Positions 638 to 62,999 of a stretch of 64,000 bases of DNA are shown here, in pieces. Positions within the stretch are counted from its first letter, which is position 1; each line of letters starts with the position of its first letter. A program made the translations under genes and the position numbers. The stretch lies in assembly GCA_014435945.1 (NCBI GenBank), contig GCA_014435945.1_4088.1; one strand, 5' to 3'. This DNA is from a phage. A model generated the notes under the pieces. The model saw only the letters and a program-made list of their open reading frames with translations, was not told the DNA's origin and ran no database searches.

Positions 638-721
638 ATGACTTTAGAGATTATCTTTGGTATTGTTAGCTTAGTCATCTGTGTGGGTTGGTTTGGGTAT
701 CTGATGATTTTTGGTGATTAA
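638..721 (+). CDS. putative 27-aa hydrophobic peptide (MTLEIIFGIVSLVICVGWFGYLMIFGD)
   Basis: Read manually; AAGGA upstream; below ORF-track cutoff. Confidence 0.25.
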   Translation: MTLEIIFGIVSLVICVGWFGYLMIFGD

Positions 722-724
722 TAC

Positions 725-755
725 TTGACATAAGATATCAGTACTGTATAATGTT
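725..755 (+). promoter_or_regulatory. sigma70-like promoter TTGACA-N17-TATAAT (spacer contains AGTACTG)
   Basis: ttgacataagatatcagtactgtataat seen directly. Confidence 0.55.
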
Positions 756-845
756 TATATCAAAGGGAATGCAGTGAAAGGAAAGACAGCATAATCGTAC
801 TCGTCACTGCGTTCCCGCCCTTTTAAATTAAATGAGGAATTAACT

Positions 846-1154
846 ATGTTTCAAACTAACACTCAAGGTTTTGTAATCATCGATTTGAACCAAAACAGCG
901 GTTATTGGATGAAACCTACTGACGCATGTATGCAGTTTGATTTTTTAGGTTACAGGATTAGTGTAAGTACTGGTGCTTCTGTACTGAGAGGTGGTTGTAT
1001 CGTTGAACATCTGGTAACTGATCCAGAAGGTCGTGAGTATGAAATCGCAGGTTCAGTACAAGATGCCATTATGTTTGTATGTCAGCGTGAAATGAATGGT
1101 TCGAATTCAAATGCACTGACTCATGCTCTTTCTCAAGAAGTGGAGGTTCGTTAA
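846..1154 (+). CDS. hypothetical protein
   Basis: ORF track; promoter and structured leader upstream. Confidence 0.5.
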   Translation: MFQTNTQGFVIIDLNQNSGYWMKPTDACMQFDFLGYRISVSTGASVLRGGCIVEHLVTDPEGREYEIAGSVQDAIMFVCQREMNGSNSNALTHALSQEVEVR

Positions 1155-1399
1155 TGAAATATATCGTAGCAGTACTCGTAGCATTTTTACTCACTGCATG
1201 TGATGCTTCAACCAAAGAACGCACAAGTGATTTTATTCTCCCGACTGAATTAAAAGAAGCCGGATGTAAGATTTATCGTATGCAAAAGGACGGTGCTGAC
1301 GTAACCTTGTATACAGTTTATTGTCCTAATGCAAATACAAGTACTGGATACACTAGCGGTAAAACACGAATCAACACTTCCGTAATTCATGGAGAATAA
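1154..1399 (+). CDS. putative lipoprotein (signal peptide with LTAC lipobox)
   Basis: N-terminus MKYIVAVLVAFLLTAC; start overlaps upstream stop. Confidence 0.5.
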   Translation: MKYIVAVLVAFLLTACDASTKERTSDFILPTELKEAGCKIYRMQKDGADVTLYTVYCPNANTSTGYTSGKTRINTSVIHGE

Positions 1400-5084: not shown

Positions 5085-5162
5085 CGTTCAAAAAGTCTCT
5101 AATAGTATTAAATACTTCTGTACAAATAATATGTGCAGAAGTATTGCTCGTTAGAGGTTATA

Positions 5163-15524: not shown

Positions 15525-15575
15525 TCATTCAGTACTGTATAATGTTTATCAAGGGGATGAACTTCTCATCCCCAC
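15525..15575 (+). promoter_or_regulatory. sigma70-like promoter (TTGACA..AGTACTG-TATAAT) followed by leader hairpin GGGGATGA/TCATCCCC
   Basis: Seen directly. Confidence 0.55.
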
Positions 15576-49686: not shown

Positions 49687-49716
49687 GATTCAGTACTGTA
49701 TAATGTTCTACATAGA
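49687..49716 (+). promoter_or_regulatory. orphan sigma70-like promoter (TTGACA-N17-TATAAT) with no ORF for over 1 kb
   Basis: ttgacattatgattcagtactgtataat. Confidence 0.45.
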
Positions 49717-50029
49717 GAGATGAGTTGCTGCGAACAATTCATTTACTCTACCTCCTGTCGTGAGACAGTACAGAAAAGATAGTTCCTCCTATTGGTGGTG
49801 CATCTTTTTGAACCTCATATGAAAATCGTAATAACAGTACTGATATTAACAGAATGGTATTAGTACTGATTTTAATCTAAAGCATTATGCCACCAGCTTG
49901 TGCTGGTGGATTCCCTCTAACAGTATTCAGTACTACATGATGGTCTTCATCCTCCTAGGGTAACATAGTGAGGGCTATGATGGCAGTACTGAATACTCCT
50001 TTCACAAGATAGATCTATGGTATAGTACT

Positions 50030-52369: not shown

Positions 52370-52639
52370 GCAGTTTACAAATCTTTACAATTGCCAGTAT
52401 TGACTTATTTTGTCAGTACTGGCATAATGTATTCATTGGCAGATAAGCCGTAGCCCATAGGGTGCGGAAGTGTATCTATAGAAAAAGTAGTTTAGTACAG
52501 TTACAATTGTGCACCCGGTGGGTTAGCTGTTGTCATGGGGTATATTATACCAGTACTGGATAGTGCTGTCAATACTTTTTTTACTATTCAGTACTGAAAA
52601 ACTATTTGATAAAAAGTACTTGCAAACTATGTTTAAAGG

Positions 52640-54412: not shown

Positions 54413-54498
54413 AAAAGTACTTGCAATTAGTTTTCAGTACTGTATAATGGTTTACATCAAAGGGAGAAATGGTTCTCCCTGGTAATGAGGAAAATAAA

Positions 54499-55584: not shown

Positions 55585-55666
55585 TAGTTTGACTATGTAT
55601 TACAGTACTGTATAATAGATACATAAGGGGCGAATAGTTTGCCCCTGGCATAAAGGGGAAAACATT

Positions 55667-57126: not shown

Positions 57127-57212
57127 AAAAAGTACTTGCAAAGTAAATCGAATAAAGTATAATACATTACATCAAGGGGAGAAATGGTTCTCCCCACTAC
57201 AAGGAAACTAAA

Positions 57213-58950: not shown

Positions 58951-59019
58951 TTTTTAAACGCGTATAATGTTTTACATGAAGGGGAGAAATGATTCTCCCC
59001 ACTAATTAAGGAATATGAA

Positions 59020-59500: not shown

Positions 59501-59586
59501 AATAATACTTGCAATTAGTTTTTAAACGCGTATAATGTTTTACATGAAGGGGAGAAATGATTCTCCCCAATAACAGGAGAAACAAA

Positions 59587-60521: not shown

Positions 60522-60616
60522 TATAAAAAATAGTTTGACAATAGATTATAGTACTGTATAATAGTTTACATCAAGGGGAGAGATGATTCTCCCCACTAAC
60601 AGAGAGAGAAAACAAA

Positions 60617-60799: not shown

Positions 60800-60889
60800 A
60801 AAATAGTTTGACAATAGTTTTAAGTACTGTATAATAGTTTTCATCAAGGGGAGAAAAACTTCTCCCCACTAACAGAGAGAGAAAGCAAA

Positions 60890-62914: not shown

Positions 62915-62999
62915 AAAAGTACTGGACAATAGATTATAGTACTGTATAATAAGTTACATGAAGGGGAGAAATGATTCTCCCCACTAAGAGGAAAGAAAA

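Follow-up and report, generated by a model that had tools for sequence, protein, structure and literature searches.

The early leader RNA considered here lies near the start of contig GCA_014435945.1_4088.1 (GenBank assembly GCA_014435945.1), a 64,000-nucleotide (nt) stretch of phage DNA that is referred to below, at its full length, as the window. Directly behind an early promoter and ahead of a gene for a protein of 102 amino acids (aa), the plus strand of the window encodes a 52-nt hairpin that consists of a single helix and a 26-nt loop (778-803). Sequence comparison indicates that this hairpin is a genuine, conserved RNA element without earlier annotation, and we tentatively favour the view that it is a functional RNA module of transfer RNA (tRNA) ancestry, neither an ordinary leader hairpin nor an operator specific to one gene. 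It is perhaps best read as the arm of a tRNA-like RNA whose cloverleaf body has been stripped away and replaced by a new closing helix.

By its sequence, the window comes from an Asteriusvirus, i.e. a jumbo coliphage of the PBECO4/121Q type; its first 1.2 kilobases (kb) are 95-99% identical to Asteriusvirus jumbo coliphages (CMSTMSU, PBECO4, 121Q and about 30 more), whereas Klebsiella phages of the RaK2 group match this region at about 70% identity and over part of the 102-aa gene only. The parts of the leader are as follows.

725-730, plus strand: -35 hexamer TTGACA of an early sigma70-type promoter, from a consensus scan
747-752, plus strand: -10 hexamer TATAAT of the same promoter, from a consensus scan
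753-764, plus strand: initial-transcribed motif GTTTATATCAAA, common to other early promoters of the phage group
765-770, plus strand: basal helix, 5' strand GGGAAU, pairing with 811-816
771-777, plus strand: upper helix, 5' strand GCAGUGA, pairing with 804-810
778-803, plus strand: loop AAGGAAAGACAGCAUAAUCGUACUCG, 26 nt, invariant
804-810, plus strand: upper helix, 3' strand UCACUGC
811-816, plus strand: basal helix, 3' strand GUUCCC, with compensatory and wobble changes
817-833, plus strand: linker, GCCC followed by the U/A-rich stretch UUUUAAAUUAAAU
834-839, plus strand: Shine-Dalgarno sequence GAGGAA, read from the sequence, outside the hairpin
846-1154, plus strand: gene for the 102-aa protein (phrog_26720), first of the transcript

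Both arm sequences quoted in the initial annotation, GGGAATGCAGTGA and TCACTGCGTTCCC, are present and pair as 13 consecutive base pairs (bp) with a single wobble (U770-G811), although not where they had been placed: the 5' arm occupies 765-777 rather than 763-775 and the 3' arm 804-816 rather than 807-819, the loop measures 26 nt rather than 31, and the end of the stem (816) lies 29 nt, not about 26, ahead of the ATG at 846 and 17 nt ahead of the Shine-Dalgarno sequence. The promoter that had been noted upstream is a perfect match to the consensus (12 of 12 positions, with a 16-nt spacer, at 725-752), and the folding proposed for the leader is borne out, in that minimum-energy and centroid predictions both give the hairpin and that none of 200 shuffled sequences was as stable, be it in a 106-nt context (-26.8 kcal/mol, z score -3.71) or in one of 72 nt (-24.3 kcal/mol, z score -4.50). 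Counting both strands, the window has only four loci with an uninterrupted stem of 13 bp that contains no more than one G-U pair and closes a loop of 3-40 nt; the other three are 5111-5145, 52392-52424 and 52551-52596. The hairpin region does not code for protein: in the frame of the downstream gene there is a stop at 792-794, with no later start codon. A mini open reading frame (ORF) of two codons, AUG CAG UGA (769-777), does lie in the 5' arm and is present in both clades discussed below; it lacks a usable Shine-Dalgarno sequence and probably has no significance. Two other structures were considered and rejected: an alternative pairing of AAAGGG (762-767) with CCCUUU (818-823) is broken in the genomes ph0011 and UE-S1 and absent from the sister clade, and a pseudoknot between AAAGG of the loop and the downstream CCUUU was discounted on geometric grounds, as its linker of 2 nt would need to reach across a helix of 13 bp.

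What speaks for a function at the level of RNA is above all the comparison with a sister clade of metagenome contigs, which were found by a protein search with the 102-aa product and form a cluster at 82-85% identity. In these contigs the gene order is that of the window and a hairpin stands at the equivalent place, reading AGCGATGCAGTGA-loop-TCACTGCATCGCT in contig L023 and ending in TCACTGTATCGCC in contig L033. Four pairs differ between the window and these two contigs.

Pair 765/816: G-C in the window, A-U in the sister clade
Pair 767/814: G-C in the window, C-G in the sister clade
Pair 768/813: A-U in the window, G-C in the sister clade
Pair 770/811: U-G in the window, U-A in the sister clade

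Three pairs are changed on both sides between the clades, and five further states are one-sided changes to G-U or U-A. Across the five distinct full-length hairpins, 98.5% of the cells are paired, as against 28-55% after a shift of the 3' strand by 1-3 columns, and every full-length variant folds into the hairpin (z scores of -3.1 to -5.2, with 0 of 200 shuffles as good); the structure first seen in the window alone is kept in its relatives, with covariation. Changes are distributed very unevenly along it. Seven of the 12 basal positions differ between the clades, nearly all of the changes keeping the pairing, whereas the 42 nt of upper helix and loop (769-810) show none at all between the window and L023, two sequences that are only 79% identical in the adjacent gene (with changes at 39% of third and 12% of first and second codon positions); for the gene upstream, identity between window and sister clade is 70%. 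Over the roughly 2 kb in which the clades can be aligned, no identical run is longer than this apical block (41-42 nt), and the next ones measure 19-22 nt. The 5' strand of the upper helix is identical in all six distinct hairpin sequences recovered; opposite it, C810 has become U, giving a G-U pair, in ph0011 and L033 and is deleted in contig L032. Since the basal changes keep pairing and the apex stays unchanged, the pattern points to an RNA structure whose basal helix is free in sequence while its apex is constrained, and to RNA of the plus strand in particular, because the G-U wobble states make sense only there. An invariant apex of 42 nt would fit a sequence-specific binding site for a protein or for another RNA.

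Within Asteriusvirus itself, all 13 pairs are kept in 11 distinct sequences, the only changes in the stem being three C-to-U transitions that turn G-C into G-U, none of them compensatory. No other part varies as much within the genus as the linker (GCCC, ACCC, GUAC, AACC and one deletion), whose CCUUUUAA is retained in the sister clade. A first comparison with the most divergent genomes, JNE01 and Turkey5, showed one change over 52 nt where the gene has 13%; the claim of constraint within the genus was nevertheless dropped, the full alignment having placed the element in a broad patch of low divergence. One metagenome variant departs from the full-length form: L032, an 816-nt metagenome contig (ENA ERZ27235517 k119_71915; hairpin at 311-362), is without CGTTCCCGCCCTTT, which corresponds to the 3' basal arm and the linker (817-824), and only the upper stem and the loop remain.

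Where might such a loop have come from? The five hairpins were used to build a covariance model, with which the window and 15 related loci were searched; its best match beyond the hairpins themselves was positions 281-305 of the RaK2 locus L004, aligned to model positions 15-39, that is, to the loop (20.5 bits; expectation value, E, of 5e-4 over 101 kb and of 4e-5 over 9.6 kb with filters off); an equivalent match was found in contigs L025 and L024. When AGGAAAGACAGCATAATCGTACTCGTC is aligned with AGCAAACACAGCATAATGGTACTCGTC, 24 of 27 bases are identical (z score 12.4, with 0 of 2000 shuffles as good). The RaK2 match lies inside F403_gt006, which GenBank carries as a 'tRNA-OTHER' pseudogene (NC_019526 194649-194735; L004 249-335) and which, searched alone, scores 33.6 bits against the Rfam tRNA model, whose gathering score is 29. 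Acceptor, D and T arms are all present, and the anticodon stem, GCGAG/CUCGU, closes a loop of 19 nt in place of the usual 7. The part of this element to which window positions 779-805 correspond by homology is the oversized anticodon loop plus the 3' strand of its stem. The expanded-loop block ACAGCAUAAU(G/C)GUACUCGUC is common to the window and to elements of the gt006 type, as is an outer pairing GCAG/CUG(U/C), and TATAATGTTTATATCAA directly precedes both the hairpin and the RaK2 element (window 747-764, L004 225-247).

Like the window hairpin, F403_gt006 and its copies in L024-L030 lie at the 5' end of early transcripts, with small genes behind them, and share with it the block AG-AAA-ACAGCAUAAU-GUACUCGUC; F403_gt006 is, however, a full cloverleaf look-alike, whereas the window retains the arm with the oversized loop on an unrelated 6-bp closing helix, with a different register of the inner stem. 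Having no acceptor, D or T arms, the window hairpin would not pass as a tRNA body. The gene behind the RaK2 element is also another one, gp281, with 73% identity to the window ORF at 428-628. The true RaK2 homologue lies about 1.2 kb upstream of the leader of the 102-aa gene and was detected by the covariance model only; local alignment of the hairpin with the leaders of the 102-aa gene in RaK2 and Hallingskeid gave nothing better than shuffled sequences. Standard searches return nothing of the kind. Rfam, searched with the first 3 kb, with the whole window and with the hairpin by itself at E values up to 10, gave chance-level matches only (DUF2815 RNA, IhtA and microRNA models) and no tRNA, riboswitch or ribozyme; window 745-850 has no tRNA match even at that E value, and nowhere in the window does a family attain its gathering score. 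ARAGORN calls no tRNA gene in the window, and none in any locus scanned, including the RaK2 and Hallingskeid loci whose tRNA-like elements lie above the Rfam threshold. Exact scans for the core matched phage 121Q alone in the viral collection, and in the genome collection they gave no match.

The leaders of the 102-aa gene family, whose homologues are present in Rak2-like jumbo phages, provide a broader setting for such a reduction.

RaK2, Muenster, L014, L024 and L025: leader of about 300 nt that begins with a tRNA-like element (30.4 and 35.4 bits; Muenster copy 20.1, below threshold)
Erwinia phage Hallingskeid and L039: one tRNA-like element, 37.1 bits, with an excess of 16 nt in the anticodon loop
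L040: clear homologue of the Hallingskeid element (z score 17.7), without Rfam match
L036 and L037: the 5' 24 nt and the 3' CCCGTC of a Hallingskeid-type element, in a 12-bp hairpin with a 41-nt interior (z score -5.1)
Xanthomonas phage XaC1, L017 and L038: leader structure absent

The tRNA-like elements in leaders of the 102-aa gene proper (RaK2, L024, Hallingskeid, L039) thus score 30.4-37.1 bits. In L036 (604-673) and L037, the hairpin GACGGGAUGAUA...UAUCAUCCCGUC with its structured interior is 100% identical even though the flanking genes differ, and these two loci are an independent case of a tRNA-like leader decaying to a long hairpin. More generally, several Rak2-like phages have tRNA look-alikes with anticodon loops of 11-19 nt placed immediately after an early promoter and before small genes, at L004 249-335 and 1141-1216 (RaK2), L009 1082-1164 (Hallingskeid), L024 1191-1265, L039 591-673, L040 594-681 and L005 about 76-150 (Muenster). 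Five of them score 30-37 bits against the Rfam tRNA model; the 5' element of Muenster and that of L040 have no Rfam match, and there the label tRNA-like is a reading of the sequence, joined in the case of L040 by homology to the Hallingskeid element. Two side observations concern these loci. In the Hallingskeid record, three minus-strand ORFs are annotated across L009 1020-1587; the real homologue of the 102-aa gene is the plus-strand ORF at 1192-1455, and the tRNA-like element upstream of it is unannotated. L017, a 366-kb viral contig without a leader element, has at about 1140-1175 an inverted repeat, GGGAGTATTGATATAATACTCCC, that spans the -10 hexamer of the promoter belonging to the homologue of the 102-aa gene.

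Put together, these observations suggest the following scheme. Host RNA polymerase would start at the sigma70-type promoter (725-752) some 5-6 nt ahead of the stem, and the first 60 or so nt of the early transcript fold, as energy and covariation show, into the 13-bp helix with its 26-nt loop. In the lower six pairs pairing alone is needed, whereas the upper seven pairs and the loop are constrained in sequence. By homology, the upper helix and the loop correspond to the expanded anticodon arm of the RaK2 tRNA-like RNA, whose acceptor, D and T arms would have been lost, with a simple closing helix in their place. The loop might then be the working part, read by a trans-acting partner, be it a protein or a complementary RNA, while the helix would present the loop and sequester the 5' end of the early transcript. 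The element could act as part of the mRNA, or it could first be cut free within the A/U-rich linker, in the manner of tRNAs released from tRNA-mRNA co-transcripts. That it would be a separate RNA module and not a control site tied to a gene is suggested because the RaK2 loop precedes a different gene and because the leaders of the 102-aa gene vary.

Several points weigh against a functional module of tRNA ancestry and account for our caution. Divergence around the element within Asteriusvirus is too low to demonstrate constraint, and all three compensatory changes map to a single branch between two clades, so that they amount to one evolutionary observation. L032 is either a viable variant or an assembly error, and counts against a need for the basal helix. 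The homology across genera spans about 27 nt, as aligned, plus the shared context. In the phage collection, the full RaK2-type element is found in only 2 distinct Klebsiella phage genomes and is therefore dispensable there, and the loops of the other tRNA-like leaders differ. No partner of the loop came to light: it has no extended complement elsewhere in the window, copies and antisense targets occurring at chance level only, and in BLAST searches with a word size of 11 nearly every Asteriusvirus record has a single matching place. Finally, the start site, processing and RNA stability are all features that we infer for this phage group.

Could the hairpin instead be a plain 5'-terminal stabiliser, whose stem blocks 5'-end-dependent decay (by RppH and the 5' sensor of RNase E) of the early operon mRNA while its loop stays idle? 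Position argues for this proposal, which we regard as doubtful. The stem begins 12 nt after the -10 hexamer and, as the usual promoter spacing would place the start of transcription near A759, probably some 5-6 nt from the 5' end of the RNA. Many strong sigma70-type promoters of the same phage carry, 9-12 nt after their -10 hexamers, short GGG(G)AGA...UCUCCC(C) hairpins with variants whose inner pairs compensate (15553-15573, 54462-54479, 55627-55645, 57177-57194, 58981-59000, 59549-59568, 60575-60594, 60848-60867 and 62963-62982; also 49715-49749), and 7 of 31 stretches downstream of strong promoter-like sites fall in the lowest 5% of background folding, where about 1.5 would be expected. In RaK2, too, the extreme 5' end is paired into a closing helix: AUCAAG, with which the transcript would begin, pairs with a CUUGAU that follows the tRNA-like element, lengthening this helix to about 13 bp. 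That the basal helix stays paired while its sequence varies is likewise what a stabiliser would predict. The generic leader hairpins, however, resemble the element only in starting with GGG at the same distance from the -10 hexamer; they have stems of 7-8 bp and loops of 4-6 nt, occur in many copies, show no sequence similarity to it and are missed by its covariance model, whereas the hairpin has 13 bp, occurs once per genome and keeps an invariant loop, which agrees with its having been singled out as larger than these hairpins. A stabiliser would need no invariant 26-nt loop, and it is because this loop is the best-conserved part locally, and recurs in RaK2 in another structural setting, that the proposal loses force. 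Emory, Bouvet and Belasco are said to have reported in 1992 that at least five unpaired 5' nucleotides weaken the protection conferred by a stem-loop, and promoter spacing predicts an unpaired tail of 5-6 nt, AUCAAA, ahead of this stem. The L032 variant, moreover, survives without the basal helix. A further small hairpin, with the motif CTAACCCAnnGGGTGC, is seen in three promoter-proximal leaders of the window (61700, plus strand; 54799 and 52523, minus strand), followed in two of the three by ACAAnTGTAAC.

Another explanation, already contained in the first description of the element as a 'translational operator or RNA-binding-protein site', is that a regulatory protein binds it to act in cis on the downstream operon, either as a translational operator or as a stability switch. 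The binding-site half of that description fits the invariant apex, and an invariant loop and upper stem on a covarying basal helix are the classic pattern of a protein-recognised hairpin, present here in one copy per genome. GGA motifs lie both in the loop (780-782) and in the Shine-Dalgarno sequence (836-838), 56 nt apart, an arrangement that may resemble CsrA-type two-site leaders. An operator for gene 846-1154 is harder to sustain. The hairpin ends 17 nt before the Shine-Dalgarno sequence and 29 nt before the AUG and leaves the ribosome-binding site untouched, the homologous RaK2 loop stands ahead of gp281, and orthologues of the 102-aa gene have unrelated leaders or none; it is because of this distance and of the different downstream gene in RaK2 that the operator proposal is weakened. 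The 102-aa protein itself has no match to an RNA-binding family or fold, and the downstream proteins match no Pfam family. The AlphaFold model of the 102-aa protein is poor (predicted local distance difference test score, pLDDT, of 62), and in a fold search the best matches to it, polo-box and PUR-alpha, were not significant (E of at least 0.14). All in all, control in cis by a bound protein seems to us unlikely.

Quite improbable, in our judgement, is the proposal that the hairpin is a decaying, non-functional relic of a tRNA-like gene, its conservation being due to close kinship or to the recent exchange of a block. It would account for the failure of ARAGORN, and of Rfam at permissive thresholds, to detect a tRNA here, for the low and patchy divergence around the element within the genus, for the rapid turnover of leader content in the 102-aa gene family and for the existence of a deletion variant, L032. 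It is weakened because of how the substitutions are distributed, since drift would not be expected to put seven into 12 basal positions, mostly with pairing preserved, and none into 42 apical ones; nor would recombination be expected to leave an identical block with edges symmetric about the helix.

Highly improbable, even taken jointly, are a terminator or attenuator (a U-run does follow the stem, but GCCC separates the stem from only four U, the loop has 26 nt, and a scan calls nothing at 765-830), a site for RNase P (in most Asteriusvirus copies the 13-bp helix is followed by G/A-CCC, recalling an RCCA tail (PMC11143913), but this tail is not kept in ph0011 (GUAC), UE-S1 (AACC) or L023 (CC)), a site for RNase III, for which 13 bp are short as a substrate, and a repressor operator at the DNA level, which the inverted repeat just downstream of the promoter would suit and against which the G-U states and compensatory changes point to RNA rather than to a DNA palindrome. 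An intrinsic terminator was taken to need a G+C-rich stem, a loop of 3-8 nt and a U-tract 0-2 nt after the stem, and the hairpin does not answer this description. Hairpin substrates of RNase P, whether pre-4.5S-like or acceptor/T minihelices, have a coaxial helix of about 12 bp and an RCCA-like 3' tail (PMC11143913); the hairpin does offer such a helix (13 bp) and a single-stranded 5' leader, the predicted AUCAAA tail.

The surroundings of the hairpin have been rearranged within the genus. Most Asteriusvirus genomes carry, between the window's promoter and the hairpin, an extra gene of 92 aa with its own promoter (PBECO4 gp350, phrog_24324), so that the hairpin stands behind a second, near-identical promoter. 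This gene is missing from the window (window 721-765 compared with L001 1120-1515, from PBECO4); in the window, CMSTMSU, ph0011 and a few others it has been lost by a deletion between the two promoters, and the joining of two near-identical promoters suggests that the promoter repeats serve as recombination sites. In every gene arrangement the hairpin directly follows a promoter of the TTGACA-N16/17-TATAAT type, of which the TTGACA hexamer is kept across all relatives while the sequence of the spacer varies. Further downstream, the second gene of the transcript (window 1154-1399) encodes a small lipoprotein that matches phrog_902 and, weakly, the Cor superinfection-exclusion family; in some related records it is labelled a superinfection exclusion or lytic conversion lipoprotein. 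The papers on Sharanji, phAPEC6 and CBB give no transcript maps and mention no leader hairpins.

What would be the significance of such an element? Among the candidates for phage therapy are the giant phages of the RaK2/121Q group, and more than 80% of their genes, together with their early gene control, are uncharacterised. Several early promoters of the group appear to drive, ahead of any protein gene, structured RNAs that are tRNA look-alikes with oversized anticodon loops, and in the coliphage lineage one of these look-alikes would have been cut down to a 52-nt hairpin that retains exactly that loop, so that the group would offer a natural series in which a tRNA gene is converted into another kind of RNA element. 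It is possible, if rather speculative, that Rak2-like jumbo phages encode a whole family of tRNA-derived early RNAs in which the oversized 'anticodon' loop, and not the cloverleaf, is functional, the Asteriusvirus hairpin being the minimal version, i.e. the loop plus any closing helix. Early in infection, a tRNA-derived RNA of this kind might work in trans by decoying or inhibiting a host defence that targets tRNAs or a tRNA-binding enzyme, or else by serving as an antisense guide. If the loop did target a host factor, it would represent a new type of phage-encoded small RNA.

How does the hairpin compare with systems already known? Translational operators of phages, such as the operator hairpin of T4 gene 43 and the coat-protein hairpin of MS2/R17, likewise combine a conserved apical sequence with a position in a phage mRNA leader; they overlap or abut the ribosome-binding site, however, and serve one gene each, whereas the window hairpin lies 17 nt away from it and its homologue serves another gene. 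The 5' untranslated region of E. coli ompA provides the model of a 5'-terminal stabiliser stem-loop. Stabilisers of the ompA type share with the hairpin a stable helix only a few nucleotides from the (here predicted) 5' end of the mRNA and a helix sequence that is free as long as it pairs, yet they need no specific loop, whereas the loop in the window is invariant and shared across genera. Elements of tRNA origin at the ends of mRNAs have precedents of their own, as tRNAs are co-transcribed with mRNAs in, for example, the E. coli tufB operon. In plant mitochondria, tRNA-like 't-elements' form part of mRNAs (PMC1920247). Both the plant t-elements and the tufB co-transcripts are, as would be the case here, structured modules derived from tRNA that are co-transcribed with protein genes and placed at mRNA ends, and such elements can define those ends by way of tRNA-processing enzymes. 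In contrast to these precedents, the cloverleaf features recognised by RNase P and RNase Z have been lost from the window element, and it is the loop, rather than the acceptor/T domain, that has been conserved.

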